Part shown: positions 3,127 through 19,320 of the stretch, piece by piece
How positions within the stretch are numbered: the stretch's first letter is position 1
Layout of the letters: the number at the start of each line of letters is the position of its first letter
IMG/VR virus record: IMGVR_UViG_3300031589_000003
Span: 1-55,772 of that record
Length of the DNA: 55,772 bases
DNA from: a virus
Taxonomy: Duplodnaviria; Caudoviricetes
Strand: one strand, 5' to 3'
Made by a program: the position numbers and the translations under genes
The notes under the pieces: model-generated
What the model was told of the DNA's origin: nothing
Databases searched by the model: none
The model's input: the letters and a program-made list of their open reading frames with translations, nothing else

Positions 3127-3903
3127 TCAGTCTAGTGGGTACACCTTATTGGACTTACTCATATTAACATAAGCGGGTAGAACTTGTAAGTTCCAGGGTA
3201 CATGTAACCCACAGACGTTTTCACCTCTAAGAGGGACTATATGGTCTACATGGTAGTCTTCACCAGTAAAGGATCTACAATCCCGCATATGCTCATATAT
3301 GTCTAATATCTGTTGCTTTTGCTCAGGGTTCAACCATTTAGGTGTAGCTTGTTTACTACGTTTATCACGTAAAGCTCTATCTCTTTTAGCTTTAGCTTTT
3401 CCTGCAGGGCTTTTCCTGTATAACTTAGCAGTATCCTGACCTTTTGGACTAGCTCTATGTTTAGCTTCCTTGTTGTTCTTACATGTTTTACATTCATGGC
3501 TAGGCGTTCTGTAAGTACTACCACTCTTACGCTTACGCTTGCGCATAGGGAACTGCGATAAGGGTAACTCTTCATTACAGTTGCCACATACCTGGACAGC
3601 TTTAGCCATGATATCCTTACGCTTTTGTTCTTGCCTCTCAAGTTCTTCTTTATGCCAAGCATCCCACTTAGCTTGGCCTAGCTGTTGCTTCTCTTCGGGA
3701 GATAGTTGCGGTTTACGTACACTACTCAGGTATTCCTCCCGATTTAAGCCTGTTGCAGAGCCTTTCTTTGCGTTGTACTGGTTTGTGTATTCTCTTCTGC
3801 AAGCCTTACACCTAGCTGTAGGTGTCTGTTCACCACTGGCTAAGCGAATCTTGTCAAACTCATGTAAGTCTTTAGTTTTACTGCATATGCTGCATTTCTT
3901 CAT
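3127..3903 (-). CDS. Free-standing HNH endonuclease with Zn-ribbon repeats (homing endonuclease-like)
   Basis: Four CxxC pairs; C-terminal YHVDHIVPL...GLHVPWNLQVL...NMSKSN; AAGGAGG RBS before ATG 3903. Confidence 0.85.
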   Translation of the reverse strand: MKKCSICSKTKDLHEFDKIRLASGEQTPTARCKACRREYTNQYNAKKGSATGLNREEYLSSVRKPQLSPEEKQQLGQAKWDAWHKEELERQEQKRKDIMAKAVQVCGNCNEELPLSQFPMRKRKRKSGSTYRTPSHECKTCKNNKEAKHRASPKGQDTAKLYRKSPAGKAKAKRDRALRDKRSKQATPKWLNPEQKQQILDIYEHMRDCRSFTGEDYHVDHIVPLRGENVCGLHVPWNLQVLPAYVNMSKSNKVYPLD

Positions 3904-3926
3904 GTTAGCCTCCTTGGTGTACGTAT

Positions 3927-3955
3927 AGTTATACCTATGTATATACATCTGTCAA
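3927..3955 (-). promoter_or_regulatory. Promoter TTGACA-N16-TATAACT
   Basis: Exact motif just upstream of the HNH gene RBS. Confidence 0.75.
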
Positions 3956-4508
3956 TAGGGGAGTGACTCATTGTAAAAAACCCGTGTGTGTATTTGTACA
4001 TATACGTATATCGTATACCCCCACCCTGGCCCCTGCCCGTACCCCTATAAGAGGTGACATATCGTTTTTCTAGGGTATTAATAGTGCTAAACTACTGTAA
4101 AGTAATACTTTTAATAGTGTTAGGTGAACCCTCTTTTGGCTAAGTTACTGTAATTGCTAGGTGTTTCCTGACAGTGAACGAAATAGCACTCACGATGCAT
4201 GTAATACACCCCTACCCCCCATTTGCGTTGCACACATATACCACCCCTAGAAAACCATGCCGCATTGCATAAAGGAATAGATACGCGCATGTAGTATATA
4301 CTCGCGAGGCAACAATTAGTTTATCTAACTAGATCAACACCTTAGATAAACTTAGCGCCAATCAATATCAAATGTTACAGCTATTCTTTAATGAAAACAT
4401 AAACTTAAACTATTTCCGTGATCATCTAAATTAATTATTGTGTTATTCAATTCATTCTGTGCATAGTGATTACATCGAAAGCGACAAGAGATAAACCGAA
4501 GCAGCGTA

Positions 4509-4520
4509 GCTCTTCAACAA
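4509..4520 (+). promoter_or_regulatory. boxA-like antitermination element (GCTCTTCAACAA)
   Basis: One mismatch to boxA GCTCTTTAACAA; at the start of the early arm. Confidence 0.55.
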
Positions 4521-4596
4521 GTCTCAGCGTCCTAACGGCGAACACGGTGCAAGGCCCTGAGAAATAAAGACTAAGACTAACGACTAAAAGATTTAC

Positions 4597-4626
4597 TTGA
4601 CTAACTAAACTAAATAATACTACGAT
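4597..4626 (+). promoter_or_regulatory. Early sigma70-type promoter TTGACT-N18-TACGAT
   Basis: Near-consensus -35/-10 with an A-rich upstream region, ahead of the early genes. Confidence 0.6.
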
Positions 4627-4640
4627 AAGACAACAAAACA

Positions 4641-4860
4641 GCCCTAGTTATCTGGATGGATGGCAGCAAGCGAATTAGCAGTCTAAGCAACTGCATAGTG
4701 ACGAAACCCGATTGTTACAGGCATGACAAAACCTGTGACATTGAGCAAGGGATGTAGGCACAAGGGATCACTGAAAGTGTGGTTTGAGAGTGGTGATATG
4801 AAACAATCCACCTACAGTGCTGGTTGCTTTGTAAAGACATCCAGGCCAAGGGTCACTATA
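4641..4860 (+). ncRNA. Putative large structured RNA (multibranch plus pseudoknot), family unknown
   Basis: Nested helices CTGGATG/CATCCAG, GCAGCAAGC/GCTGGTTGC, GCAGT/ACTGC, TGTTACAGG/CCTGTGACA, TGTAGG/CCTACA, and crossing ATAGTGAC/GTCACTAT. Confidence 0.6.
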
Positions 4861-4953
4861 GCTATGTCTTCACTAAGCAACAATAACGTCTGCTTAGCTT
4901 GGGTTTATCTCTACGGTGATATAAGCCTTAACCCTAAACATTTGGAGAATATC

Positions 4954-5220
4954 ATGTATAAAGTTGAAAAGAATGTACCAATGCCAAACGCAACTCGCAA
5001 TGGCGTTCCTTACTACAAATACCCTTTCTTCACAATGAATGTAGGTGATAGCTTTGCGGTGCCTGTTGATCCTACCACCACGTTGAATTACATTCGTGTG
5101 GCACATCGCCTATCAGCAGGTATCTGGCACCAAAGGAAGCGCAAGGATAATGATGGGCGTGACTTCTCAATCCGCACAGATAAAGTGAACCGCATTGTCA
5201 GGGTATGGCGCACAGCATAG
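4954..5220 (+). CDS. Early small protein of the KYPF..M.VGDSF...RVWR phage family, probably DNA-binding
   Basis: GGAG RBS before ATG 4954; motif recognition. Confidence 0.75.
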   Translation: MYKVEKNVPMPNATRNGVPYYKYPFFTMNVGDSFAVPVDPTTTLNYIRVAHRLSAGIWHQRKRKDNDGRDFSIRTDKVNRIVRVWRTA

Positions 5221-5265
5221 ACTACCTTGACAGATAGGCATTGAGGTGCCTATTCTCTAGATAGT
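5221..5265 (+). other. Intergenic long imperfect hairpin; possible RNase III site
   Basis: ATAGGCA/TGCCTAT core with extended flanking pairing and no U-tract. Confidence 0.4.
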
Positions 5266-5284
5266 TTAACTTAGGAGCGTAACA

Positions 5285-5899
5285 ATGTTTACAGATGTAC
5301 AAGATAGAAATATCCTAGCGCGTAACATTCTTAAGACGTATGGCCTAGCTACACGTAAAGAGAAGCTTGACGGGTTACGTTGGTACAAGAAAGCCAAGCG
5401 TGAATGCCGTGCTCTTGCTCTTGCTAAGGGTGTGACACTACGTCATTCAGTTGGTGTGGTTGCTGCTACTAGTCCAAACCTTAACTGGAACAAGAACGTC
5501 CACACAGCTGGACAAGTTATTGACGGGTATCAGCAAGGCTTAGACCATGAAGCTATTGAGGGATGCATGGCTTACAAGTCTAATCGCCTTAAGGGTTACA
5601 AGGTTATGCGTGATCCTAATCGTAGCCAAGCTATTCTTAAGACGCTGAACGGCCCTAAGATTAGTGCTTTCTTTGACAATATCATGGGTGGTGATAGCGT
5701 TACAGTGGACGGCCACGCAAGAAACATAGCGTATGGTGAGCGTGTGCAGCTTAAGTCTGACAAGGCTAACATTGGTGTGGCTGAATACAGAACACTAGCG
5801 CAAGCATATCGTGACGCTGCATCTATACTAAATATCAAAGCCTGTGACCTACAAGCTATCACTTGGGTAGCATGGCGCAGAATGCATGGGATCAAGTAA
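5285..5899 (+). CDS. HhH-GPD DNA glycosylase-fold-like early protein (DUF7178-like)
   Basis: WY...VAATSP...W..N; GPKISAF; VTVDGH; LQAITW motifs. Confidence 0.65.
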   Translation: MFTDVQDRNILARNILKTYGLATRKEKLDGLRWYKKAKRECRALALAKGVTLRHSVGVVAATSPNLNWNKNVHTAGQVIDGYQQGLDHEAIEGCMAYKSNRLKGYKVMRDPNRSQAILKTLNGPKISAFFDNIMGGDSVTVDGHARNIAYGERVQLKSDKANIGVAEYRTLAQAYRDAASILNIKACDLQAITWVAWRRMHGIK

Positions 5900-5900
5900 C

Positions 5901-6044
5901 ATGACAAATATACCACAGGATTGGGAAATTATAGAGCTATTCGATAGCACAAACTTGACGGTAGCACAGGTAGCAGCGCACTTTGGTGTCACTACCTACA
6001 TGGTGAAACGTGTCTTAATGGCACAAGATGATTGGAATGACTAA
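5901..6044 (+). CDS. Small helix-turn-helix protein (47 aa; not in ORF track)
   Basis: LTVAQVAAHFGVTTYMVKRVL; TAATG coupling to the next gene. Confidence 0.65.
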   Translation: MTNIPQDWEIIELFDSTNLTVAQVAAHFGVTTYMVKRVLMAQDDWND

Positions 6045-6268
6045 TGTTTATATGTATCGCAACAAAGCCCCTGAATGATCGCACTGATGGTTTCCGCTTT
6101 AATCTGTGTGGCTTCAAAGGATTGACACGCAAGCGCCAGAAAGTATCACGCTGGGGCTTAGCTAAGGGTAAGGCAATGCAAGCTTTGCACTTTGGCAAGC
6201 GCTCTATCTATATCGAAAAGAGTGTCAACAAAATCACATCACGCCGTGTGCGTCACTTTGCAGGGTAG
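6044..6268 (+). CDS. Basic hypothetical protein
   Basis: Coupled ORF in the early operon. Confidence 0.65.
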   Translation: MFICIATKPLNDRTDGFRFNLCGFKGLTRKRQKVSRWGLAKGKAMQALHFGKRSIYIEKSVNKITSRRVRHFAG

Positions 6269-6321
6269 ATAAGTTTTCTATCATACGGTGATATTCTAAC
6301 AGTAACAGTAGAGGTGCTATC

Positions 6322-7053
6322 ATGACTAAAGGTATTGTAATAAGTCTATATGACTTCACAGGTGAAGCACTGAAACCGTGGGCAGATGCTGGCTACACTT
6401 GCCACGCCTTTGACATTCAACATTCCCTCAGTGATCCAGAGGTGCAGACCTTTGATGGTGGCGGCAGTATAACATACAACTATGCTGACCTTCATGATCA
6501 CAACTGGTTGAACGCCATACAATCAGAGTTTGGTGACAAGCCTGTGGTGTTTGGCATGGCCTTCCCTGTCTGTACTGACATGGCTGTATCAGGTGCGGCA
6601 CACTTCAAGCGCAAGGCACAGGCCAACCCCTTCTTTCAGGCTGATGCAGTAGGACATGCGACAGCAGTGGCAAGGATGTTCAACGGCATGGCTATCCCTT
6701 ACTTCATAGAGAACCCTGTGTCAGTGTTAGCTACCATGTGGCGCAAGCCTGACTATCGTTTCCACCCCTATGAGTATGGCGGCTACATCCCTGACGATCA
6801 GATAGAGCACCCACGCTGGCCTGAGTACATCGCACCACGTGACGCCTACCCTAAGAAAACCTGTCTCTGGACTGGCGGCGGTTTCGTCATGCCAACTAAA
6901 GTGGCTGTGACAGTCAAGCAGGGCTATGCCAAGCAGCATCTAAAGCTTGGCGGTAAGTCACAGCGCACCAAAGACATACGCAGTGCCACACCCCGTGGCT
7001 TTGCCATAGCAGTCTATGAGTTTAATAGTATTGATGAAAAGGAGTACGCATAA
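6322..7053 (+). CDS. DNA (cytosine-5) methyltransferase, short phage type
   Basis: ISLYDFTG (motif I), AFPVCTD (motif IV-like catalytic Cys), IENP (motif VI), KKTCLW, RSATPRGFA. Confidence 0.8.
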   Translation: MTKGIVISLYDFTGEALKPWADAGYTCHAFDIQHSLSDPEVQTFDGGGSITYNYADLHDHNWLNAIQSEFGDKPVVFGMAFPVCTDMAVSGAAHFKRKAQANPFFQADAVGHATAVARMFNGMAIPYFIENPVSVLATMWRKPDYRFHPYEYGGYIPDDQIEHPRWPEYIAPRDAYPKKTCLWTGGGFVMPTKVAVTVKQGYAKQHLKLGGKSQRTKDIRSATPRGFAIAVYEFNSIDEKEYA

Positions 7054-7277
7054 TGGACATGGATAAATATTTTAGGCAGTTAGTAGGCTGCAAGATTGTA
7101 AGCTTTTACTTTCAAGAGGATGACTATGGTGCAAGAGATTGGCCTGTGTTCATCATACAAAAGCCTAACAGTGAGGGTGGTGGTGAGCTTATGGTTTCAC
7201 TATCACAGGATGAAGAGGGCAACGGCGGTGGCTTTGCTTTCATAGAGGAGAACATTATCACAGCATCCATAGATTAA
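7053..7277 (+). CDS. Hypothetical protein
   Basis: AAGGAG RBS; SQDEEGNGGGF motif. Confidence 0.7.
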   Translation: MDMDKYFRQLVGCKIVSFYFQEDDYGARDWPVFIIQKPNSEGGGELMVSLSQDEEGNGGGFAFIEENIITASID

Positions 7278-7333
7278 GCAACACCACCAGCCACCCTATA
7301 CTAGTAACGGTTAGAGAGAAGAGGAATAGAACT

Positions 7334-7594
7334 ATGAAACGTAATTACAGGACAGCATACAATCAGCTTAAGAAGATTGGCGTGCCCGTCTATGAGGGTG
7401 GCTACAACGGTGATGATACCTTCCGCATATCAGCAGAGGAAAACTATGATACCGTGTGGGCTGACTACTACAAAGAGTTTGATGCATCACTGGATGACTT
7501 TGGTGTGAACCATAAGATCAACGATATCCTGACTGACAATGGTTTGTACGCTGAGTGGGAGAATGGCGGAGTATTAGGAGTGGCACAACAATGA
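7334..7594 (+). CDS. Hypothetical protein
   Basis: GAGG RBS; GLYAEWEN motif. Confidence 0.75.
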   Translation: MKRNYRTAYNQLKKIGVPVYEGGYNGDDTFRISAEENYDTVWADYYKEFDASLDDFGVNHKINDILTDNGLYAEWENGGVLGVAQQ

Positions 7595-7797
7595 TTACTA
7601 TCACACGCAGAAGCCCTTTGACGGGTAGAACAAGCACTATGCGGATGGACATATCAGAGGGTGCTTTACAGGCTTGGCAGGGAGGTATGCTAATCCAGGA
7701 TGCCATGCCTAACTTAAATGCAGATGAACGTGAGTTTGTAATGACAGGCATCACACCCTATGAGTGGGATAATATGTTTGAAGAAGAGGAGGTATAG
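7591..7797 (+). CDS. Conserved phage early protein (LIQDAMPNLNADEREFVMTGITP.EW)
   Basis: AGGAG RBS before ATG 7591. Confidence 0.75.
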   Translation: MITITRRSPLTGRTSTMRMDISEGALQAWQGGMLIQDAMPNLNADEREFVMTGITPYEWDNMFEEEEV

Positions 7798-7799
7798 CC

Positions 7800-7979
7800 A
7801 TGTTACTTAGAGAGTTGACAAAAGCATTAGCTTCTGGCAAGGATGTTAGGTGGGCTAGTGATGGCTACAAAGTATGGTGGTTTGGTGATATGATCTGTGC
7901 CATCTACGAGAATAACGGTTTCAATTGTGCTCTGACTACTGAAGAGGTAGAGCGGTGCTACATCAAAGGAGAGAAGTAA
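7800..7979 (+). CDS. Hypothetical protein (59 aa; not in ORF track)
   Basis: GGAGG RBS; MLLRELTKALASGKDVRW... Confidence 0.65.
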   Translation: MLLRELTKALASGKDVRWASDGYKVWWFGDMICAIYENNGFNCALTTEEVERCYIKGEK

Positions 7980-8113
7980 TGGACAAGGTAACAAAAGCTA
8001 AGATACTAGCAATACTGAGTGAGCACGTTACCATCCCTAAGAAGGATGAAGACCGTGTGATTGATGGCCTGTATAAGGCATATGTTGAAGTAAGAGAGGA
8101 ACAAAAGGTATGA
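7979..8113 (+). CDS. Hypothetical protein (44 aa; not in ORF track)
   Basis: AGGAG RBS; TAATG and ATGA coupling at the two ends. Confidence 0.6.
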   Translation: MDKVTKAKILAILSEHVTIPKKDEDRVIDGLYKAYVEVREEQKV

Positions 8114-8298
8114 TATTATTACAGCTTACAGCTAATGAGCTTACTGTACTAAATGAGGTGCTACATAGTGACATGGATTTAAGCAGCTTTGAAGCCCCTG
8201 ACTATTCTGACACAGAGCTTATGAAGTATTACAGTGATCGAGCTACCTTACTTGAAAAGGTAACAGAGGAGATAAGCACATGTTTAAACACGCAATAG
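8110..8298 (+). CDS. Hypothetical protein
   Basis: Coupled ORF with GAGG RBS. Confidence 0.65.
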   Translation: MILLQLTANELTVLNEVLHSDMDLSSFEAPDYSDTELMKYYSDRATLLEKVTEEISTCLNTQ

Positions 8299-8744
8299 CT
8301 AGTAAACTAGCAATAGCATTAACTATTCTTGCTACACCAGTAGCTGCACAGGATAGCGTCAACGGGACAGTGAAACACTTTTACTACTCGTACACTGAGG
8401 AAGTACCTGAGACTAAGCGGGTATGTGAGATAATCCAGGTTCCTATATATAAGGAGGTAAACAAGGGTACATCTGGTGCTGACGTGTTTGGTGGGCTACT
8501 TCTTGGTGGACTACTAGGCAAGGCCTTGACAGGGGATGACAAGGGTGCAGCGGCGGGTGCAGTTATCGGTGGCATAGCATCTGCTGAACACAACAAGACA
8601 GAGCAAGTGATCACTGGCTATCGTAATGTACGAGAGTGTTCTGAGAAGACATACACTATGGAATACCAGAGAAAAGCCTATGACTACAGTGAGTTGACCT
8701 TTAGGCTGGATGGCAACACATACACTGTTATGTTTGAAAGGTGA
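8280..8744 (+). CDS. Exported glycine-zipper protein
   Basis: Signal peptide (…ATPVAA-QD); GGLLLGGLLG...AAAGAVIGG zipper. Confidence 0.75.
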   Translation: MFKHAIASKLAIALTILATPVAAQDSVNGTVKHFYYSYTEEVPETKRVCEIIQVPIYKEVNKGTSGADVFGGLLLGGLLGKALTGDDKGAAAGAVIGGIASAEHNKTEQVITGYRNVRECSEKTYTMEYQRKAYDYSELTFRLDGNTYTVMFER

Positions 8745-8986
8745 AGCTAATGCAGCCTATACAAAAAGCCGCCGTGATGCCTGACTTTGACTTCAACGAT
8801 ATGTGTAAAGATATAGCGTGTGAATGGTTATCAGAAGTGTGTCACGAATACCCGTATATTAATGATCCCAATGGTGAAGTGATATATACACAACAAGCCC
8901 AAGAACGTTATGATGAAATACTTGACATGGTTAGACAATTAGCGTTCAATTATATAATAGTAGAAAAACAAATGGAGACTATCTAA
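8741..8986 (+). CDS. Hypothetical protein
   Basis: Coupled ORF; start uncertain. Confidence 0.6.
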   Translation: MKLMQPIQKAAVMPDFDFNDMCKDIACEWLSEVCHEYPYINDPNGEVIYTQQAQERYDEILDMVRQLAFNYIIVEKQMETI

Positions 8987-9261
8987 TGCCTTATATTGAA
9001 AATGAAGAAGAAGCAGCACGTTCAGCAATGTACAAAGCGGAGCGCGAAGCTAAGCAGAAACCCCTACGTGAAGGGTTTGACTGCCTGACAATTGACCAGC
9101 AACAAGCACTCATGTATATATTCAAGACGCTTGATGATTTCAATGATGAGAACCGTGATATGGAGGGTGACTGCTATCATTCAACATGGATTAAGTTGAC
9201 AGGTTTGTATGGCAAAATGATTACTGCCTTTCCAAACGTAAGAGATGAAGAGGATAACTAA
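8986..9261 (+). CDS. Hypothetical protein
   Basis: GGAG RBS, TAATG coupling. Confidence 0.7.
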   Translation: MPYIENEEEAARSAMYKAEREAKQKPLREGFDCLTIDQQQALMYIFKTLDDFNDENRDMEGDCYHSTWIKLTGLYGKMITAFPNVRDEEDN

Positions 9262-9262
9262 C

Positions 9263-9445
9263 ATGGACAGGCTTATTATACGCAAGAAGAAACACTACTC
9301 AAACAAATCTTGGAATGTAGAACTAATACAAGGAGAGCTATCTTTTTACAGGGCGTATGAGGCCACTGAATACAAAGCAGACAAGGCAGTAGAGCGCCTA
9401 CAATATCTTTACCCTGATGCAAGTATGGAGGTATTCAGCCCATGA
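9263..9445 (+). CDS. Hypothetical protein
   Basis: GAGGA RBS before ATG 9263. Confidence 0.65.
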   Translation: MDRLIIRKKKHYSNKSWNVELIQGELSFYRAYEATEYKADKAVERLQYLYPDASMEVFSP

Positions 9446-9627
9446 CCCAGCAGCTAGTAGTGATCTGCGAGTATCAAGCAGAGCGTCAGTTTGACTACCT
9501 CCACCGCCGCATGAGCTACGCCGACACTGCGTCAGCACAAGACTATTGGTGGCGTCAGATACAAGACCACAGTGCAGCCCTAGAAGCTCATCGCTCTGAT
9601 GCAAGTATGGAGGTATTCAGCCCATGA
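9414..9627 (+). repeat. 32-bp perfect direct repeats (9414-9445, 9596-9627)
   Basis: CTGATGCAAGTATGGAGGTATTCAGCCCATGA twice. Confidence 0.95.
9442..9627 (+). CDS. Hypothetical protein bounded by the direct repeats
   Basis: GGAGG RBS and ATGA lie within the repeat. Confidence 0.65.
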   Translation: MTQQLVVICEYQAERQFDYLHRRMSYADTASAQDYWWRQIQDHSAALEAHRSDASMEVFSP

Positions 9628-9806
9628 AAGATAAGTTTAACACAGAGAACCTTGTAGGCGCTCACCAATATCACAATGAACTACAGCGACAGATTGACGA
9701 TGCAGATTGGATGGGTAAGTATGAGGATACAGAACATCTTGTACGCCAAGCTAAGCAGGTCAAGGACTGCATTGATGAAGGAGACCAGTACTATACATTA
9801 TTCTAA
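9624..9806 (+). CDS. Hypothetical protein
   Basis: GGAGG RBS, ATGA coupling. Confidence 0.7.
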   Translation: MKDKFNTENLVGAHQYHNELQRQIDDADWMGKYEDTEHLVRQAKQVKDCIDEGDQYYTLF

Positions 9807-9827
9807 CAGGATGGCGAAGGAGAGATA

Positions 9828-9920
9828 ATGTATGCTATACCTATAGTTCTTATAATAATTTATCTAGCAGGTGCAGTGTACTTTATTTATGATACATTTC
9901 AAGGAAACAAGGATGATTGA
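9828..9920 (+). CDS. 30-aa single-pass membrane peptide (not in ORF track)
   Basis: AAGGAG RBS; MYAIPIVLIIIYLAGAVYFIYDTFQGNKDD. Confidence 0.6.
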   Translation: MYAIPIVLIIIYLAGAVYFIYDTFQGNKDD

Positions 9921-9991
9921 AACAAACACAGATGATCCATGTGACGATTGGTCAGACAAGCCTATACCTAAAACAAAAGAGGAGCAAGAGA

Positions 9992-10924
9992 GTGACAAGA
10001 AAGTTCAGCCCAATAGTCCCAAGAGGCAACCACCCTTTTCGTTATCTGGTAGAGTTTTATTTTCAATCAGATAAGTTTCGTGATGTATCTGGTGAAACAC
10101 AGAAGACCAACACTAGACATCTTAACAAGGTTTGTGATACTGTCCTAAAGGATGGTAGGAAGGTAGGTAGTATACGAATAGATAAGATAGGTGTTAAACA
10201 ACTCAGCGAAGCATATGCTATTTGGAAACGTATTGGTGTTCGCACTGCTAACATTAGATCAGAGTGCCTATCCGCCGTTTACCGTGTAGCTATGCAAGCT
10301 GAGATAGTCCAGGTTAGTCCTATTGGTTTAGTCGATAAGACTGCTGGCAAGCCAAGACGGGTAAGGTGGACGCATGATAACGTCAAGTCATTCTTAGACA
10401 CTGCCTACGGTGATTTTGATTATCGTTCTATCGGCTTGATAGTACACATGGCCTACGAGTGGGCGCAACGATTAGGTGATATGCGTAGACTAACTTGGGA
10501 TGCTCTAGACTTAGATGCCCAGCGCTGTGACCTAGTACAACGTAAGAGAGGAGCAGAAGTACACCTACCTATACCACCACAACTAAACAAGATGTTAATC
10601 CTACAGAAAGAAGATTGGGGCTTTCAACAGTACGTAGCTCCAAGAGTTAAACGTAGAGCAGGAGCATACACACCCTATCAAGAAGTAGAAATACATCAAG
10701 TTATCAATGAGGTAAAGGAGAAAGCTAATCTACCACCTGAGCTTACAGGTATGGACTTGCGGCGTACAGCTATCACTCAGATGGTTGAGGCTGGCTCAGA
10801 TCAGTTTGAAATCATGCAAGTGAGTGGACATGCCAACCCTAGTTCTGTTACACCTTACTTGGTAAACACATTCACGGGTGCATCCAATGCATTAGCAAAG
10901 AGATGGGAAAAGAAAAATGAGTAA
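9992..10924 (+). CDS. int: Tyrosine recombinase/integrase
   Basis: Catalytic R (AQRLGD), K, DLRR, SGH and Y (VTPY); GTG 9992 with GAGGAG RBS preferred over 9917. Confidence 0.9.
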   Translation: MTRKFSPIVPRGNHPFRYLVEFYFQSDKFRDVSGETQKTNTRHLNKVCDTVLKDGRKVGSIRIDKIGVKQLSEAYAIWKRIGVRTANIRSECLSAVYRVAMQAEIVQVSPIGLVDKTAGKPRRVRWTHDNVKSFLDTAYGDFDYRSIGLIVHMAYEWAQRLGDMRRLTWDALDLDAQRCDLVQRKRGAEVHLPIPPQLNKMLILQKEDWGFQQYVAPRVKRRAGAYTPYQEVEIHQVINEVKEKANLPPELTGMDLRRTAITQMVEAGSDQFEIMQVSGHANPSSVTPYLVNTFTGASNALAKRWEKKNE

Positions 10925-11720
10925 AGTAAGCGACTACCTAGACACGCTTAACCTGACTGATGGTCTATCGTTTCGTGGCATGTGTCCTATGTGTCACGCT
11001 AGGAATGACTTCAGTGCAACTAACAAGGATGGTGTGATTGTATACAACTGCTACAAGCTGTCCTGTAATGTTAAGGGTGCGTATGGTAGTGGCTTAACAG
11101 CTACAGAGATACAAGCAAAGATCAACGCTTGGAGCATGTCAGTAGAGGGAAACAAAAAGAAAGAGCTAGAACGTATGGTATTACCTGAGTATGTTGTTAC
11201 ACCTAAGCCAGAGCACAAGCTATTCCATAGATTTGTAAACAGATGGAACATACAGGGTGAAGATCTTATGTATGACGTGAAGGACAGACGCTGCGTGTTC
11301 CCCTGTACTAGTAACGGTAAGCTAGTCGATGCTACTGGTAGAGCCTTGGACGGTGCTAAGCCCAAGTGGTACAGGTACTCTGGGCTAGGGCATTACTTTA
11401 CAAAGTGCATTGGCATACCGAATGGTACTATACTTGTAGTAGAGGATGTGATAAGCGCTATAACTGCTGCGAGAGTATGTCCTGGCCTAACCGCTATGGC
11501 TTTGCTTGGTACATCACTTACTGAAGATCATAAGGCAAAGATTGGAGAGTATAGCAGGGTTATCGTAGCGCTAGACCCTGACGCTGTACCCAAGACGTTG
11601 ACCTTTACACGAGAGATTGTGTCTTGGACAGGTCTACCTACTAGTGCTTTACGTCTTGACGATGACATAAAGTATGCATTAGAGTCTGACATTGAGAAGC
11701 TTAAGGAGTTTGTAGGTTGA
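10917..11720 (+). CDS. DNA primase (Zn-binding plus TOPRIM)
   Basis: CPMC...CYKLSC; VVEDVISA; ALDPDA. Confidence 0.88.
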   Translation: MSKVSDYLDTLNLTDGLSFRGMCPMCHARNDFSATNKDGVIVYNCYKLSCNVKGAYGSGLTATEIQAKINAWSMSVEGNKKKELERMVLPEYVVTPKPEHKLFHRFVNRWNIQGEDLMYDVKDRRCVFPCTSNGKLVDATGRALDGAKPKWYRYSGLGHYFTKCIGIPNGTILVVEDVISAITAARVCPGLTAMALLGTSLTEDHKAKIGEYSRVIVALDPDAVPKTLTFTREIVSWTGLPTSALRLDDDIKYALESDIEKLKEFVG

Positions 11721-11814
11721 ATAAGAACTACTATATAAACGAACTAACTAAGAAAGTAGAAGAACTAGAAGAACGTATAGCTAAACTAGAAACAGAGATT
11801 AAGGAGCGCAAGAA

Positions 11815-11994
11815 ATGAAAGTAATAGCAATACTATTGTGGATAAACTTTATACCAGGCCAAGGTATACGATATCACCACTTAGGTACGTTTGACAATAA
11901 GACACTGTGCATGGCTCAACTAAAGTTTGCCTCAGTTATGGTAAATGACAAGTCAGAGACAATAGAATGTATTAAAATAGAGGTAGAACACTAA
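11815..11994 (+). CDS. Small putative exported protein (59 aa; not in ORF track)
   Basis: AAGGAG RBS; hydrophobic N-terminus, 2 Cys; TAATG coupling to thyX. Confidence 0.6.
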   Translation: MKVIAILLWINFIPGQGIRYHHLGTFDNKTLCMAQLKFASVMVNDKSETIECIKIEVEH

Positions 11995-12653
11995 TGATTA
12001 AATCTACTTACATAGAGCACATGGGCAATGACCTAACTGTAGCTAACGCTGCACGGGTAAGCTTTGGTAAGACTTCTGAGATGGATGTGAATGACGTATG
12101 GAGTCCACCTAAACTTAAGGCTAAGGACGATAAGCTGATCCGTTACCTTGCCAAGCACAAGCACATCAGCCCCTTTGGGCATTGCTTTGCATCGTTCCAC
12201 GTCAAGGCTCCAGTGTTTGTAGCACGTCAGCTAGTCAAGCATAAATTCCTGCGTTGGAATGAAATATCTAGGCGGTACGTGGATGATGATCCAGAGTTCT
12301 ATGAGCCTAACTTCTGGCGAGGACGTAGCCTTGACAAAAAGCAAGGCAGTGAAGGCCATATCACCCTAGTGCTAGACCAAGAGATACAGTGGCATAGGCA
12401 GCTGAGTACTTACAAGACACTTCTAGCAGATGGAGTAGCCCCTGAGCAGGCACGTATGGTACTACCCCAGAGCATGATGACTGAGTGGTATTGGTCAGGT
12501 AGCCTTGACGCCTTCGCTGATATGTGTAACCTACGGTGTAAAACAGATACACAAGCAGAAACACGTGAGGTAGCTAATCAGATTGACCGAAAGATGCTTG
12601 AACTATTCCCTGTATCATGGGATGCACTAACTGAGGAGGAAAACAATGATTGA
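11994..12653 (+). CDS. thyX: FAD-dependent thymidylate synthase
   Basis: AARVSF, H.SPF, ARQLVKH...[15 protein letters not shown]. Confidence 0.95.
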
Positions 12654-12876
12654 TCTATACGAACTAGAGCCGCACATCATGGACTGCTGGTCAGTCTGTA
12701 ATGACCTTGAGACAACATTCAGACAGATTGGTGACGGTGAACGTGAGCCTACTCAAGATGAAATGATGAACGCACTGATGGGTATGCAGCAACTATACCA
12801 GTGGAAGTTTGAGCAGTTGTTCTTTAAGTATGAACAGATACAGAAAGTACAACGTGAAGCAGTAATAAATGACTGA
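12646..12876 (+). CDS. Hypothetical protein
   Basis: GAGGAGG RBS. Confidence 0.75.
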
Positions 12877-13087
12877 TGTAGCTAGACTAGAGGTAAAAGT
12901 TATGAGTATGTGTGGTGAGATAGAGAATCTACAACAAGAGCTAAAAATAGCTAACGAGAAGATTACAGAGTTGCAAAAGCAATTAAACTATGCAACAGAG
13001 TTTGATGAGCAAGACATAAGAGAGTTTAATGAGGAAGAACGCAAGAGATCAATAGAGAGAGCAAAAGCTAACAATGTTCACAGTTGA
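12869..13087 (+). CDS. Coiled-coil hypothetical protein
   Basis: Coupled ORF with heptads. Confidence 0.65.
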
Positions 13088-13310
13088 GTTTGAGAAAGAT
13101 GCATCTGTCATCACCAGTTTAGATGAGGGTGACGCATTTAGTGATGTTGAAATGATAGTAGGAGAAGATAATACAGTTTATATTAGGCAGTTTGATGAGG
13201 ACTTAGATCAGTACCAGATGTTGTACATGTCTTATCAACAACTAAGAGATCTATTTCTATCAATGAATAGATCAGAGGGTATGTTCTACGCAATAGAAAA
13301 AGGGAACTAA
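13074..13310 (+). CDS. Hypothetical protein
   Basis: Coupled ORF. Confidence 0.7.
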   Translation: MFTVEFEKDASVITSLDEGDAFSDVEMIVGEDNTVYIRQFDEDLDQYQMLYMSYQQLRDLFLSMNRSEGMFYAIEKGN

Positions 13311-13313
13311 AAG

Positions 13314-13481
13314 ATGAGCAAGAATCTAAGACAACTAAAGGATCAGTTATCTGACCTAGAAGCTAAGCGTATGTCAATTATAAAGACTACTAAAAAGCTA
13401 ACTCCTAAGCGTAAAGAGCTTGAGATAGAGATTGCTTATACGCAACACGAGATAGTTACGATCAGGAAGGTGTACGCATGA
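13314..13481 (+). CDS. Small coiled-coil protein (55 aa; not in ORF track)
   Basis: MSKNLRQLKDQLSDLEAKR...; fills the gap, ATGA coupling to the helicase. Confidence 0.6.
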   Translation: MSKNLRQLKDQLSDLEAKRMSIIKTTKKLTPKRKELEIEIAYTQHEIVTIRKVYA

Positions 13482-14701
13482 TGGAGTTCGCTCTTGTCAA
13501 GACGCTCTTAAACAAAGAGTTCTATGAAAACAACAAAGGAGTTCGTTGTCCAGATAAACTATTCACTAAGGATATACGTCTTGTAAAGAAGACCATTGAC
13601 TATGCTATGGAGACCTACGAGAAAGACCTAAGTGTAGCAGAGCTAGAAGCTTTGTTCTTTAGTAACAACACCTTAACTACTGCTAACAAAGAGTCCTACA
13701 AGGATGTCTTCCGTAGGATCAACAAAGAAGAGGCCATGTCTCAGGGTATTGCCAACGAAGTTATGGCTAATATGTTTCAAAAGGTGGTAGGTGAAGAGGT
13801 AGCTAACATTGGCTTTGAGTACATCAATGGTGGTGATCATAGTCTAGAGCCGCTGCGTAACCTGATACAGAACTACCAAGATGACTTCATGCCTAACCTC
13901 AAGGTTGATTGGGATGATATGTCTATTGACGCCTTGCTTAAGGCCAACGCTATTGAGTGCCAGTGGAAATGGAACATCCCATCACTAAGAAAGAAAGTAG
14001 AAGGCATTAGCGCTGGGCATCTCATTATTGTAGGTGCTAGACCTAACACGGGTAAGACAAGCTTCCATGCCTCTACCTTAGCCTCTCCAGGCGGGTTCGC
14101 TAGTCAGGGTGCTAAGTGCATGGTGTTATGTAATGAGGAGCCATCACATCGCGTAGGAGCGAGGTATCTTAGTGCTGCTACCACTATGTCAATGGAAGAG
14201 GTTAAGGGCAACTACGCACTCGCTGCTGCTCGCTACAAGCCTGTCACAGAGAACATCTTTGTTAAGGACAGCACAGGCAAGGACATGGCATGGGTAGAGG
14301 CTATTGTTAAGGCTTACTCCCCTGATGTCGTGGTACTGGACATGGGTGACAAGTTTGCCTCTAAGGGTGGCTCTGACTCACACGTATACCTCAAGGATGC
14401 AGCCATCCATGCACGTAATATTGCCAAGCAGCACAACTGCGCTATCATCTGGATGTCTCAGCTATCAGCAGATGCAGAAGGGAAGGTCTACGTTGATCAG
14501 AGCATGATGGAAGGCAGTAAGACAGGCAAGGCTAGTGAAGCTGACTTGATGATCCTGATCTCACGCAACAAGTTAGTTGAGGGTGCAGATGAGCAAGATG
14601 AACAAAGGCACTTGAACATTGCTAAGAATAAGCTTAAGGGTGGGTGGCATGGTGTCGTACACTGCGAACTAGACGGAGATCGTAGTCAGTACACGGCGTA
14701 A
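13478..14701 (+). CDS. DnaB-like (SF4) replicative helicase
   Basis: GARPNTGKTS Walker A; VVVLD; IWMSQL; KNK. Confidence 0.92.
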   Translation: MMEFALVKTLLNKEFYENNKGVRCPDKLFTKDIRLVKKTIDYAMETYEKDLSVAELEALFFSNNTLTTANKESYKDVFRRINKEEAMSQGIANEVMANMFQKVVGEEVANIGFEYINGGDHSLEPLRNLIQNYQDDFMPNLKVDWDDMSIDALLKANAIECQWKWNIPSLRKKVEGISAGHLIIVGARPNTGKTSFHASTLASPGGFASQGAKCMVLCNEEPSHRVGARYLSAATTMSMEEVKGNYALAAARYKPVTENIFVKDSTGKDMAWVEAIVKAYSPDVVVLDMGDKFASKGGSDSHVYLKDAAIHARNIAKQHNCAIIWMSQLSADAEGKVYVDQSMMEGSKTGKASEADLMILISRNKLVEGADEQDEQRHLNIAKNKLKGGWHGVVHCELDGDRSQYTA

Positions 14702-14713
14702 GAGGATGGATGG

Positions 14714-16762
14714 ATGAGACTAGTATTAGACGTTGAGAACACAACTACCAGACGTAACGGTAGGCTACACATGGACCCCTTTGAGCCAAGCAATACACTT
14801 ACTCAAGTAGGTACACAGAATATAGACAACGTTAATGAGACAAACATCTTTACGTTAGACCATGTAGAAAAGAAAGATAACTCTGGACTACAAGCTAAGC
14901 AGATACAGCTGATCCTAGATCAGACTACGCTACTAATTATGCACAACGCACAGCATGACCTCATGTGGTTGTGGGAGTGTGGCTTTACGTATGATGGTGA
15001 CATATATGACACTATGTTAGCTGAGTATATTTTACTGAGAGGAAAAAAAGACGTACTGAGCATGGACGGTTGCGCCCAGCGCCGTGAACTAAACTTCCAG
15101 AAAGATGATACTTTAAAGGAGTACTTTAAGAAAGGGTATAACACAAATGAAATACCTCTTGATGAGCTTAGCTTTTATTTGCGGCGTGACCTTGACGTTA
15201 CTCGCGAGTTGTTCTTTGCAATCGAAGCCGACTACGCCAAGCCTGAGTCCGACTCCCTACTACGAGTCAAAAACGTTACCTTCAGAACCTGTAAAACCCT
15301 TACAAGAATGTACATGTCGGGAGTCAGGGTGGATAAACCCGCCTTAGAATTAGTACGTAAAGAGTTTGAAGAAGAGAAGATAGCTATAGAAGAGAGGCTT
15401 ACAAAACAAGTACGTATGCTTATGGGAGATACACCAGTAAACCTCAACTCACCAGAGCAGATGTCATCTGTAGTATACAGTTGCACTCTCAATGAGAAGA
15501 AAACTTGGGTTGACTTGTTTGATTATGTAAACAATAAGGCTGAGTTCAAAGAAGTAGTAACTAAAAATACAGAGCGTACATACAAGACCAAAGCTTTTAC
15601 CTGCCCTATTTGCAAGGGTAAGGGTAAGACGTTCAAGCAGAAGAAAGATGGTACGCCTTACTCTAAGCCTAACAACTGTAAGGATTGCAGTGCTAGAGGC
15701 TACCAGCTAAAGAAGCTAGACAAGCTTGCAGGGCTGGGGTTCTTCCCACCTAACAAGGCTTGGGTTAGTGCAAATGGTTTTGGAACAGGAAAGGATAGAT
15801 TAGATGTTCTCATATCGAATGCTAAAACGAGGGGCTTGGATTATGCTGTCAGTTTCCTTGGTGATCTACGTAGGTTATCTGCTGTTAGTTCCTACCTTAG
15901 TTCCTTTGTGGAAGGTATCTCAGACTATACCAGAGGTGACTCCTATCTCCATGTCACTCTTACCCAACACATCACAGCTACAGGTAGGTTTAGTGGTAGA
16001 AACCCTAACATGCAAAACATGCCAAGAGGAGGGACATTTCCAGTAAAGCGTGTGTTTATATCTCGCTGGGATGGCGGTCTGATCTGTGAGGCAGACTTTG
16101 CTCAGCTTGAATTTAGAACAGCAGCTTTCCTAGCACAGGATGAGACAGCTATGGAAGAGATTGCGACAGGCTTTGATGTACACAGCTACACTGCCAAGGT
16201 TATCACTGATGCTGGTCAGCCTACTACCCGTCAAGAAGGAAAGGAGCACACCTTCGCTCCCCTGTTCGGGGCCAGTGGATATGGTAGAAGCAAAGCAGAA
16301 GCTGCTTACTATGAAGAGTTTATCAACAAATACAAGGGTATAGCTAAGTGGCACAAGAATCTAGGCAACGAGGCTATACGTCTAGAGAAGATTACTAACG
16401 TGTCAGGTAGGCAGTACGCTTTTCCTGGCATTACTAGGAGAGCTAACGGTACACCTACATTCTTCACTATGATTAAGAACTATCCAGTGCAGGGCTTTGC
16501 GACAGGTGACGTAGTTCCTGTAGTCCTGAATGAATTAGAAGATAGATTAAAACCGTTGCATTCTTGTCTAGTAAATACAGTGCATGACTCAACAGTAATT
16601 GACATACACCCAGACGAAGAAGTTCAAGTAATACAGATAATTAACGACTTGAATGAAGACTTAAACGATCTAGTAGAGAAGGCATACGGTGTGACTATGA
16701 ATGTTCCTCTACTATTAGAAGCAAAGATAGGCATCAACTGGCTTGACACAGTTGACGTTTAA
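14714..16762 (+). CDS. polA: Family A DNA polymerase with 3'-5' exonuclease and inserted DnaJ-like Zn finger
   Basis: LDVE, HNAQHD, TGRFSGRNPNMQN, ADFAQLEFR, KEHTFAPLFG, NYPVQ, VHDS; CPICKGKG...CKDCSARG. Confidence 0.96.
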   Translation: MRLVLDVENTTTRRNGRLHMDPFEPSNTLTQVGTQNIDNVNETNIFTLDHVEKKDNSGLQAKQIQLILDQTTLLIMHNAQHDLMWLWECGFTYDGDIYDTMLAEYILLRGKKDVLSMDGCAQRRELNFQKDDTLKEYFKKGYNTNEIPLDELSFYLRRDLDVTRELFFAIEADYAKPESDSLLRVKNVTFRTCKTLTRMYMSGVRVDKPALELVRKEFEEEKIAIEERLTKQVRMLMGDTPVNLNSPEQMSSVVYSCTLNEKKTWVDLFDYVNNKAEFKEVVTKNTERTYKTKAFTCPICKGKGKTFKQKKDGTPYSKPNNCKDCSARGYQLKKLDKLAGLGFFPPNKAWVSANGFGTGKDRLDVLISNAKTRGLDYAVSFLGDLRRLSAVSSYLSSFVEGISDYTRGDSYLHVTLTQHITATGRFSGRNPNMQNMPRGGTFPVKRVFISRWDGGLICEADFAQLEFRTAAFLAQDETAMEEIATGFDVHSYTAKVITDAGQPTTRQEGKEHTFAPLFGASGYGRSKAEAAYYEEFINKYKGIAKWHKNLGNEAIRLEKITNVSGRQYAFPGITRRANGTPTFFTMIKNYPVQGFATGDVVPVVLNELEDRLKPLHSCLVNTVHDSTVIDIHPDEEVQVIQIINDLNEDLNDLVEKAYGVTMNVPLLLEAKIGINWLDTVDV

Positions 16763-16771
16763 TGTATAACT
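16743..16771 (+). promoter_or_regulatory. Promoter TTGACA-N16-TATAACT
   Basis: Exact motif upstream of the SSB-like gene. Confidence 0.75.
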
Positions 16772-16806
16772 AACTTTCCTAGCATAGATAAAAAGGTAGA
16801 AAAACT

Positions 16807-17676
16807 ATGAGTACACAACTAACAGTAGCAAATGAATCAGGGCAATCCCTAGCAGAAATGATGGGCGTAGCTAATACAAATAGTCCATCTTCTAAGTCAA
16901 CCCTAGCACGGCTGACACAGGTACACCAAGCAGCTATGGGGCTGATGGAAGTAGCTGGTAAGAAAATCAAGACAGAGGTAATGCCTGTAGGTGTTTACAA
17001 GCTGACCTTGGATGAAGACACAGCCATCTATTCAGAGAACCCTAAGATCCGTATCTTCGCTATCCGCCAGCAGTGGACACAGTTTGACAGTGAGTTGAAC
17101 GCCATGAATAAGACAGTAATGGCTACTGATCTTAAGGGTGACTTCAAGGATACTAAGGGTGGCTTTAACTTAGGGCGTCCAGGTTACATCAAAGATTGGG
17201 ATGCAACATCAGAGACTACAAAGAACCTTATCCGTTCTATCAGCCGTACTATGGTTGTCTTTGGTCTTATTACTCTTGATGATGCTACAGATGCAGATGG
17301 TAAGAGTATCACGGGTGACTACGTTAATATGCCATTCGTTACAGACGTTAAGAACAAGCTTAGTGTCAAAGCATTGAATGGCTACATCTCTACTATAGCA
17401 CGTAAGAACAAGCTGCCTATCCAGTACAACGTAACTCTAGGTGCAGGTATACATGACTTACCCAATGGCAACCAGTATGCGTCCTACACGTTCAGCGCAC
17501 CTGATCTCGTAGATGTACAAGAGGGTGACAATGAAATCCTCAAGGACTTCTTGGAGTTTGTTGAAGTTACTAACACTGGCATCCTAGCTAAGTGGGATGA
17601 GAACAATCGTCAGGACGTAGATGATTATGAAAAGGAGATCATTGCTTCTATTGTTGACGTAGAGGAGTTTGAGTAA
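16807..17676 (+). CDS. Putative ssDNA-binding/recombination protein
   Basis: Acidic C-terminal tail (DVEEFE); position after the polymerase. Confidence 0.55.
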   Translation: MSTQLTVANESGQSLAEMMGVANTNSPSSKSTLARLTQVHQAAMGLMEVAGKKIKTEVMPVGVYKLTLDEDTAIYSENPKIRIFAIRQQWTQFDSELNAMNKTVMATDLKGDFKDTKGGFNLGRPGYIKDWDATSETTKNLIRSISRTMVVFGLITLDDATDADGKSITGDYVNMPFVTDVKNKLSVKALNGYISTIARKNKLPIQYNVTLGAGIHDLPNGNQYASYTFSAPDLVDVQEGDNEILKDFLEFVEVTNTGILAKWDENNRQDVDDYEKEIIASIVDVEEFE

Positions 17677-18945: not shown

Positions 18946-19319
18946 TGGGCGATAGACCTAAGACAGGCAACGATGCACTAATAATAGCTCCAGGTGAGGT
19001 TGCCTTAATTATCCAAGCTATTGATTGGGATGCAGCAGATGGCTGGGATGGTGAGATAAAAACTAACATGGTCATGAACTCAGATGGTGATGTACCTTTA
19101 GAAGTTATGGGACACATGGTAGAAGTATTAACTATGATGACAGCTTTTCTTTCTGTATCAGATGACCACCCTGAAATCTATGACATTGTAGAGATGAGAA
19201 GAAATGAGCTTTTGGGCCTTGACATAGTTGGTGGAGTACAAGATAACAAAGAGAGTGTAACTAAAGTGGGTAACGTCTACACAATAGACAAGTGGACTAA
19301 GACAAAAGGAGACTGCTAG
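18945..19319 (+). CDS. Hypothetical protein
   Basis: AGGAG RBS. Confidence 0.7.
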   Translation: MGDRPKTGNDALIIAPGEVALIIQAIDWDAADGWDGEIKTNMVMNSDGDVPLEVMGHMVEVLTMMTAFLSVSDDHPEIYDIVEMRRNELLGLDIVGGVQDNKESVTKVGNVYTIDKWTKTKGDC

Positions 19320-19320
19320 T

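Follow-up and report, generated by a model that had tools for sequence, protein, structure and literature searches.

A conserved multi-hairpin RNA that heads the early operon in an uncultured HMO-2011-type podovirus is one subtype of a modular family of phage early leaders

The sequence analysed here, hereafter the window, is the whole of the IMG/VR virus record IMGVR_UViG_3300031589_000003 (55,772 bases; CheckV completeness estimate, 73), for which an original prediction had proposed a large pseudoknotted RNA at positions 4641-4860. Comparison with relatives indicates that positions ~4633-4826 of the + strand encode a conserved multi-hairpin RNA of ~195 nucleotides (nt) at the head of the + strand early operon, a conclusion that is well supported. 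It is also well supported that this RNA is one subtype of a previously unnamed and modular family of early leaders. The DNA polymerase encoded by the window shares 73.5% identity with the enzyme of Roseobacter phage CRP-603 and 56% with its counterpart in Puniceispirillum phage HMO-2011, and the other proteins include a DnaB-type helicase, a ribonucleotide reductase, a large terminase subunit, ThyX and an integrase-family protein. Therefore, the window can be assigned to an uncultured HMO-2011-type marine podovirus. Few viruses of marine Roseobacter, SAR116 and SAR11 hosts are as common as the HMO-2011-type phages and their podovirus relatives.

No match was obtained when positions 4400-5300 (901 bases) were compared by blastn with 50,697 phage records, and an exact-pattern scan of prokaryote genomes (185,579 species, each represented by a single genome) gave 0 matches. 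Among the loci of 18 relatives fetched through the second gene of the operon, which encodes a DUF7178 protein, one (L009) has the element. Furthermore, exact scans for conserved words showed that 8-9 IMG/VR contigs and 25 metagenome contigs carry the form of the RNA found in the window (hereafter subtype A). Deduplication left 26 unique stretches, the 25 full ones constituting alignment A1; this alignment includes 17 group-B sequences, and the clade of the window amounts to 6 distinct sequences with the 3' arms discussed below. A covariance model of the full subtype A (R1; 195 positions, 33 pairs) recovers 26 matches, 25 of them distinct, in the window and in uncultured contigs, and finds nothing in the other 19 loci at E <= 1 except one spurious match (E 0.74). 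Conservation runs from the -35 hexamer of the promoter to AGUGCUGG (~4824), and the following 130 bases, up to the start codon of the first gene, are unconserved between clades. Six loci (L028-L030, L095, L096 and L100) were discarded as they only had short-pattern matches, in coding DNA or due to chance.

That the region encodes a structured RNA, as originally predicted, is borne out by covariation in these relatives. On the model-guided alignment of the 25 distinct sequences, 93.1% of the 799 cells are in standard pairs, and double-sided changes affect 9 of the 33 pairs; slid controls, in which the 3' partners were displaced by 1-3 columns, gave 0-2. Shuffles have a covariation score of 0.116 +/- 0.008, and none of 500 attained the observed value of 0.210. 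An unfitted MAFFT alignment gave 91.7% of paired cells, 8 pairs with double changes (0-4 in slid controls) and a score of 0.190. Since kinship between the sequences inflates covariation counts, the slid controls and the number of versions in which a stem occurs are the stronger arguments. Folding energy, on the contrary, is no better than chance: stretch 4641-4860 folds at -63.0 kcal/mol, against -58.25 +/- 4.35 in 200 dinucleotide shuffles (z-score -1.09; 29 of 200 as good), the opposite strand has a z-score of -0.65, and those of the conserved core 4633-4826 and of the core of one relative are +0.11 (107/200 shuffles as good) and +0.89, respectively. As the fold and the complementarity of the window alone are no more than expected by chance, the case rests on the relatives. 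The original prediction had named both a lack of covariation and an energy no better than shuffles as evidence against the RNA; the second was found and the first was not, so that energy is not decisive.

The hairpins of subtype A, all on the + strand, are described here from 5' to 3'. P1 is limited to two pairs in the window (G4641-C4667 and C4642-G4666) and is supported by C-G to G-C changes, being GGCC/GGCC in group B, i.e. in most relatives. An insertion hairpin within P1, P1a (4647-4652/4659-4664, loop UGGAUG), is found in 8 sequences only, with 97% of cells paired and one double change; inspection by eye suggests a similar UGGAU-looped hairpin in subtype D. Pa (GCAGU/ACUGC, 4678-4682/4690-4694, loop CUAAGCA) is supported by double changes in two of its five pairs, with 94% of cells paired; one position shows three states (U-A, C-G and U.G) and another one alternates between G-C and A-U. 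It is followed by a joining strand, (A)GUGACGA-N-ACCCGAUUG (4695-4712), made of invariant A1 columns, in which CCC 4707-4709 might pair with GGG 4749-4751 (P2), a possible helix that never varies. Pb (UGUUACAGG/CCUGUGACA, 4713-4721/4732-4740) has a nearly invariant loop, CAUGACAAAA, and is also supported: it comprises nine pairs in the window clade and in L031 and L051, changes from C-G to U-A in two sequences and contains three internal non-standard pairs (G.A, A.G and U.U) in 13-17 sequences. Pa and Pb had both been proposed originally, as GCAGT/ACTGC (4678/4690) and TGTTACAGG/CCTGTGACA (4713/4732), and both turn out to be conserved with covariation.

A second strand of invariant A1 columns, UUGAGCAAGGGA-N-GUAGGCACA (4741-4766), holds the 5' arm of Pe (GUAG 4754-4757/CUAC 4812-4815), which shows one-sided changes only and is imperfect in another subtype, A'. 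Pe is what is left of the helix TGTAGG/CCTACA of the original prediction: four of its pairs are conserved, and its sixth pair clashes with Pd. The hairpins that this helix was thought to enclose, Pc and Pd, are conserved with covariation. Pc (AUCAC/GUGGU, 4767-4771/4779-4783, loop UGAAAGU) and Pd (GUGG/CCAC, 4790-4793/4808-4811, 14-nt loop UGAUAUGAAACAAU) are the first and second hairpins of the core and are separated by a 6-nt linker, UUGAGA (4784-4789), which in the family also takes the forms GGUAGA, UAUAGA, UAGAGA and others. Pd exists in four versions (GUGG/CCAC, GCGG/CCGC, ACGG/CCGU and AUGG/CCAU), with double changes in two of four pairs and 100% of cells paired; the consensus of its loop, read by eye from A1, is UGAYWUGAAWCAR. 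The T-loop-like loops announced for these hairpins did not hold, UGAGA being located in the Pc-Pd linker and not in a loop, and the loop of Pc differing among relatives. The conserved core ends with a 3' tail, CUACAGUGCUGGUUG (4812-4826), and conservation drops past AGUGCUGG. Three other approaches or helices were abandoned. RNAalifold on the raw MAFFT alignment missed Pa and gave a long-range helix resulting from gap placement, and a hand-set structure with the model-guided alignment was used instead; an all-against-all search for column covariation was swamped by clade-defining differences; and a closing helix AAGC/GCUG (4668-4671/4819-4822) is broken, by eye, in L031, L051, L044 and the L039 group.

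Fixed-position G.U pairs, for instance in Pc (24/25 sequences), would be A.C on the opposite strand. Therefore, it is the + strand that folds, as RNA. This bears on a very improbable alternative, namely that the conserved element acts at the DNA level or in replication (e.g. as an origin, as a primer transcript or as an array of regulator-binding sites), and not through an RNA fold. The location at the minimum of the cumulative GC skew, within ~1 kb of conserved non-coding sequence that separates divergent gene modules, and the presence in relatives of neighbouring blocks with palindromes such as GTGATCAC would agree with such an element. However, the GC skew is confounded with gene orientation, compensatory changes pass through G.U intermediates, stems are kept while loop lengths vary and the fixed G.U pairs fit only a + strand RNA.

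The global fold that had been proposed for 4641-4860 is about half right: the local hairpins hold, whereas the long-range helices and the pseudoknot fail, and the conserved element stops near 4826. The complementary segments are all present where they had been placed, with one A.G mismatch in GCAGCAAGC/GCTGGTTGC (4663/4819) that had not been mentioned. However, the 3' partners (4819-4859) of the closing helices GCCCT/AGGGT, CTGGATG/CATCCAG and GCAGCAAGC/GCTGGTTGC are absent from the 17 group-B sequences, which keep the core. The 8-base-pair (bp) pseudoknot ATAGTGAC/GTCACTAT exists in the window but is not conserved, its 3' partner also being absent from these 17 sequences, and by our arithmetic ~0.4 perfect 8-bp complements are expected by chance per 220 nt. 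Among the 6 window-clade sequences, CTGGATG/CATCCAG (87.8% paired), GCAGCAAGC/GCTGGTTGC (85.2%) and the pseudoknot (85.4%) depart by mismatches only, at three, five and four pairs, respectively; for GCCCT/AGGGT, 96% of cells are paired, and its single double change hinges on how L051 is aligned. Furthermore, these arms have other partners. The CTGGATG arm takes part in the local hairpin P1a, which also exists in L031 without the supposed 3' partner, and the CATCCAG arm belongs to a 3' hairpin, AAGACAU/AUGUCUU, in which a T-to-C change that breaks CATCCAG is compensated by an A-to-G change. This 3' hairpin (~4821-4884) also takes up GGTTGC of the third closing helix. Judging from these alignments, the outer helices and the pseudoknot are accidents of the window clade or alternative pairings.

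Translation of 4723-4953 had been put forward as a finding that would speak against the RNA, and it is not supported by the relatives. According to this explanation, the conservation would be due to a short leader peptide translated from ATG 4723, or to the first gene having a long N-terminal extension. The open reading frame (ORF) from ATG 4723 (MTKPVTLSKG...) is indeed open to 5220 in the window, 21 of the 25 sequences agree in all of its first 10 residues, and it is in frame with three different first genes (those of the window, of L055/L036 and of L048). However, it stays open to the first gene only in these four sequences (window, L055, L036 and L048); the other 21 stop at four different codons, namely 14 (2 sequences), 16 (2), 34 (1) and 38 (16). 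Moreover, the start codon is ACG in 2/25 sequences, 2 nt are inserted within the conserved part of L031 and L051, the residue-altering substitutions are those that compensate each other in Pb, Pc and Pd, ~90 nt located 5' of the ATG are equally conserved, and the sole purine-rich run lies 2 nt from the ATG. A coding explanation is thus scarcely credible and, judging from the relatives, translation does not explain the conservation. The frame being in phase with three different first genes in four window-clade sequences is odd, and probably results from chance and shared ancestry.

The first clue to a wider family was a relative, found through its first gene, that kept only the Pd hairpin. A scan with the group-B Pd pattern matched 58 IMG/VR contigs, three of them with chance-like matches in GC-rich coding DNA and ~47 outside subtype A. 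All subtypes share Pc, the 6-nt purine-rich linker and Pd, and all leader types lie just 3' of a TTGAC(T/A) promoter and 5' of the first gene. Subtype labels and several of the shared motifs were read by eye and are leads only. Subtype A' has the layout of A, with a short unrelated hairpin replacing Pb; subtype D has a UGGAU-loop 5' hairpin, GUGACG and a Pa-like hairpin whose loop is CUAAGGA; the leaders of subtypes C and E measure only ~110 nt, and Pc-Pd stands alone in them. A core model (R2), which was trained on subtype A only, matched all 39 expected sources and none of 16 controls. On the R2 alignment of 36 distinct cores, 96.2% of cells are paired, against 76.9% in shuffles, double changes occur in 7 of 9 pairs (2-3 in slid controls) and the covariation score is 0.531 against 0.167, a value reached by 0/500 shuffles. 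All five pairs of Pc have double-sided changes in these cores, and loop lengths vary while stems persist. In addition, an uninterrupted hairpin of at least 4 bp ends right before the linker in 38 of 39 distinct cores, with 14 different stems, a feature also found in ~20% of shuffles. A first gapless alignment of the cores (A6) was structurally inconsistent and was not used. The full model R1 also detects all 29 other-subtype sources tested at E <= 0.01, scoring ~100-106 bits in A', 28-48 bits in D and 19-27 bits in C and E. It is therefore well supported that Pc-linker-Pd is the invariant core of the family and that the 5' domains (P1/P1a, Pa and Pb) are lineage-specific.

This modular make-up argues against a compact ribozyme or riboswitch. 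A riboswitch-like sensor, in which the joining strands would form a ligand pocket setting early-operon expression according to the state of the host, would agree with the promoter-proximal, 5' untranslated location, with the fact that half of the nucleotides of A1 are invariant, many of them unpaired, and with a hairpin abutting the ribosome-binding site that could serve as expression platform. The helices of the original prediction could even be viewed as alternative pairings between the core and the loop of the 3' hairpin in the window clade. However, they are unconserved beyond this clade, the downstream genes differ (four kinds of first gene in subtype A alone), truncated and mosaic forms keep only Pc-Pd, with 5' domains swapped or absent between subtypes, and no Rfam riboswitch was matched. 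We consider such a sensor improbable.

The family was rightly described as unknown. A scan of the whole window and of 12 related loci with Rfam 15 at gathering scores gave 0 matches, and relaxing the threshold to E <= 10 on 3900-5000 gave five, all with eukaryotic families (best, 21.4 bits for a threshold of 90); ARAGORN found neither transfer RNA (tRNA) nor transfer-messenger RNA genes in the window. In blastn searches of the phage records, two leaders of other subtypes and a 46-nt core gave no match or chance matches in Xanthomonas phage endolysin genes. In the literature searched, we found no RNA of this kind described for HMO-2011-type phages or roseophages, the models of an IMG/VR catalogue not being compared. 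This bulk catalogue (DNAVirus_N) lists 8,495 candidate RNAs from IMG/VR (PMC10690425). It draws on the same intergenic source and the same kind of covariation evidence as our analysis, and its candidates measure 29-151 nt, so that the Pc-Pd core or subtype C would be of suitable size; the accessible part of its text mentions no marine podovirus early-leader family (PMC10690425). An earlier, unnamed listing of the family may therefore exist in that catalogue.

The RNA site is the 3' end of a ~1-kb non-coding gap, which extends from a - strand endonuclease-like ORF (3127-3948) to the first + strand gene. Genes are on the + strand from ~4.95 to 23.8 kb and on the - strand in the rest of the window, so that the early operon consists of ~19 kb of co-oriented genes; no RNA polymerase gene was found among the scanned proteins. 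A sigma-70-like early promoter is predicted on the + strand, with the -35 hexamer TTGACT at 4597-4602, an 18-nt spacer and the -10 hexamer TACGAT at 4621-4626 (9/12 matches to the consensus). TTGAC and ACGATA(A/G)G are retained in every relative reaching that far, including sister phages with another leader. The position near a -10 box noted originally is supported, the RNA lying ~7-15 nt 3' of the conserved -10-like hexamer, and its 5' end would be near 4633. Its place on the first early transcript is supported as regards the head of the operon and uncertain as regards being first, since RNA-library contigs also cover 4492-4596. Six such contigs, short (88-160 nt) and with a depth of 2-4, were found on 4492-4773 in four metatranscriptome runs from four studies; they reveal neither RNA ends nor strand-specific expression, and DNA carry-over is possible. 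Three of the six cover 4492-4596, i.e. 5' of the predicted start, which may reflect an additional upstream promoter (perhaps TTGTGT 4437/CATAGT ~4461, a site under the threshold of the promoter scan) or DNA carry-over. The best promoter-like site of the region is located further downstream, at 5227-5256 (TTGACA, 18 nt, TATTCT; 10/12 matches), and its spacer holds the inverted repeat ATAGGCA/TGCCTAT. A hairpin module with this repeat lies directly 3' of the RNA in L038, L088 and L006, and also in group B, there with extended loops.

Between the core and the first gene, the + strand also encodes the extended 3' hairpin mentioned above (~4821-4884). Its central helix, AAGACAU 4834-4840/AUGUCUU 4864-4870, has 100% of cells paired, with a U-A to C-G double change in 2/6 sequences. 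A long irregular hairpin is found between the core and the first Shine-Dalgarno sequence, and stops a few nt 5' of the latter, in 15 of 17 representatives covering all subtypes. Its longest uninterrupted runs are 7-17 bp and its z-scores, -2.1 to -6.4, are rough as they derive from 30 mononucleotide shuffles each. This hairpin resembles an RNase III site. In the window, it is followed by a second hairpin at 4873-4897 (CUAAGCA/UGCUUAG, 7 bp, 11-nt loop), shared only with L047, whose 5' arm repeats the loop CUAAGCA of Pa. The first early gene (ATG 4954, to 5220; ribosome-binding site GGAGA at 4944-4948) encodes 88 amino acids with a weak DUF7303 match. The first gene is not the same in all carriers of the RNA, not even within subtype A.

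Our preferred reading, which we hold tentatively and well short of conviction, is that the leader would act as a cis-acting platform on the nascent RNA for a factor or for RNA polymerase, by analogy with nut and put sites. We propose a factor-binding platform because the element is tied to the promoter and not to a gene, is modular, has conserved loops and linkers and precedes a long hairpin located before the first ribosome-binding site. Moreover, partial and mosaic forms exist, e.g. the ~110-nt leaders with Pc-Pd alone, and separate binding modules therefore fit better than a compact catalytic or ligand-binding fold. The ~19-kb co-oriented operon, the lack of an RNA polymerase gene among the scanned proteins, and the boxA-like motif and Pb apex considered below also agree with such a platform. 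According to this scheme, host RNA polymerase would transcribe the leader from the promoter at 4597-4626, and the conserved loops and joining strands would bind, in cis, a host or phage factor or the polymerase itself. Binding would then favour processive early transcription, or control the processing or translation of the first early message, and the downstream long hairpin would be an RNase III-type processing site.

Several observations weigh against this cis-acting role, which is inferred from sequence alone. R1 found no match at E <= 10 in the whole records of three cultured relatives (CRP-603, CRP-2 and CRP-207), and sister phages that have the same promoter carry unrelated leaders of ~300 nt (L004:2266-2700, L005:2096-2500 and L006:1522-1950); the RNA is therefore dispensable or replaceable. 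Two features recall nut sites, each with reservations. The rrn boxA is UGCUCUUUA (PMC2724277) and the P22 boxB is GCGCUGACAAAGCGC (PMC11480772), and a nut-site boxA was taken to be CGCUCUUA or UGCUCUUUA, on the same transcript and a few nt from boxB. A boxA-like motif, GCUCUUCAAC (GCTCTTCAAC), exists at 4509-4518, as does GCUCUUUAAC in L005, L009, L031 and L045. However, this motif lies 5' of the 4597 promoter and ~200 nt from Pb, it is replaced by unrelated sequence in about half of the relatives, and 0.34 chance occurrences are expected per window, with at least one in 31/100 shuffles. The apex of Pb, UGACAAA, is identical to that of the P22 boxB, but it would close by a single U-A pair above two mismatches (a 2x2 internal loop), this U being C in 2/25 sequences, and it is absent from subtype A'. 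No arginine-rich N-like protein turned up, no search for arginine-rich motifs being made, and the scan of 4400-24300 revealed no convincing intrinsic terminator within the operon, of the kind for which antitermination would be necessary. Furthermore, TTGACA occurs between the RNA and the first gene in some relatives, with a promoter-like site in L038. Transcripts from such a downstream promoter would lack the RNA, and a separate trans-acting RNA therefore fits better there.

Such a trans-acting small RNA, released by a cut at the long hairpin or made from its own promoter, could be a decoy or sponge for a host protein or an anti-defence mimic; we regard it as the main rival, possible but doubtful. 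It would be transcribed first, its locus, like those of anti-defence systems, is a variation hot spot among close relatives, and its conserved hairpin loops would be available for binding. The long hairpin could both free and protect it, and a second TTGACA is located 3' of the RNA in subtypes A' and D and in L038/L088. In addition, Pa, with its 5-bp stem and 7-nt loop (C/U)UAAGCA (CUAAGGA in D), looks like an anticodon arm, by eye only. However, no intrinsic terminator follows the RNA, and the RNA-library contigs are short, of low depth, reach 5' of the promoter and show no discrete RNA. The core has only chance-level short matches to its own genome, as repeats or antisense (E >= 2), it resembles no Rfam family, host RNAs included, and was not called as tRNA-like, and its pattern has no match in the genomes of the 185,579 species.

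Concerning the core itself, Pc-linker-Pd might, on the first nascent transcript of the infection, capture host RNA polymerase or a host factor without any dedicated phage protein, and thus represent a new and widespread put-like or decoy class, which we consider rather unlikely. The swappable 5' domains would then tune the RNA to different hosts, and the RNase III-type hairpin would free it from the message. If the two-hairpin core does bind RNA polymerase or a host factor, it would be a second natural RNA-only transcription modifier, or a new kind of phage decoy; RNA-only transcription modifiers are a very small class. To our knowledge, almost nothing is known about the takeover of transcription by these polymerase-less podoviruses. 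The RNA is carried at the head of the early operon by at least 57 IMG/VR contigs and by further metagenome contigs. Hence, a conserved early-operon RNA that is supported by covariation and absent from Rfam provides a testable handle on this takeover.

Other observations concern the surroundings of the RNA. The unrelated leaders of the sister phages hold, by eye, short words in common with subtype A, namely a hairpin loop CACGACAAAAC like the Pb loop of L046 and the words GUGACG...CCGAUAGG, and share CGTTATTTGA(C/A)AT with L002 and L003. The whole ~650-nt non-coding block located 5' of the promoter (3950-4600) is also conserved in relatives. It includes invariant stretches, such as TACATCGAAAGCGACAAG at 4471-4488 and a hairpin flanked by CGCG (near 4283-4312), as well as C-rich runs around 4208-4250, and the block of relatives contains repeated GTGATCACAAA palindromes; possible roles of the block are those of an origin or an operator array, or it may encode further RNAs. 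Downstream, the second gene (5285-5899) encodes the DUF7178 protein (phrog_3842), for which AlphaFold2 gives an all-helical model with a confidence (pLDDT) of 94.2; the PDB structures closest to it are those of HhH-GPD DNA glycosylases (Ogg, MutY, AlkA and Mag2), which it resembles only weakly (best E 8.5e-3, TM ~0.55). This gene is 65-1011 nt 3' of the RNA core in most loci extending far enough. We claim no link between this protein and the RNA, 17 of the 18 loci fetched through DUF7178 being devoid of the latter. A 52-amino-acid ORF (5886-6044) has a weak match to sigma-70 region 4 (E 0.0022, below the cut-off), and a Phage_integrase-family ORF (9917-10924; E 8.9e-16) lies within the early operon. 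HMO-2011-type phages are commonly regarded as lytic. The only strong intrinsic terminator predicted for the + strand early operon in the scanned region (4400-24300) is located at its end, at 23842-23864. It is a strong stem-loop of nine pairs (seven G-C), where the + and - gene blocks converge.

Among known systems, the riboswitches of phage 5' untranslated regions are likewise promoter-proximal and patchy, with conserved unpaired junctions, but here there is no constant class of downstream gene, truncated and mosaic forms exist and no Rfam riboswitch is matched. The early region of T7 belongs likewise to a podovirus and has strong sigma-70-type promoters and long hairpins 5' of early ribosome-binding sites. 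It consists of tandem host promoters and of RNase III sites between the leader and the early genes, and we know of no conserved multi-hairpin RNA between promoter and processing site in T7. The lambda/P22 nut sites and the lambda N leader show the same order as here, i.e. early promoter, RNA module, long hairpin and Shine-Dalgarno sequence of the first gene. The likeness to nut extends to the boxA-like GCUCUU(C/U)AAC nearby and to the UGACAAA apex of Pb; however, the boxA-like motif is here ~120 nt upstream, beyond the promoter, and absent in about half of the relatives, and nut has no counterpart to the family-wide Pc-Pd core. The HK022 put sites are RNA-only processive antiterminators made of two stem-loops located 3' of early promoters, which act in cis without protein factors. 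They differ from the leaders described here by their size (~70 nt against 110-215 nt) and by the variable 5' domains of the latter. The two stem-loop layout of put is found in Pc-linker-Pd in a promoter-proximal position (39/39 sources, 0/16 controls), a resemblance of layout only. As in HK022, the phages concerned depend on host polymerase and have adjacent stem-loops just 3' of early promoters, which are tied to the promoter and not to a gene and are patchily distributed among related phages.

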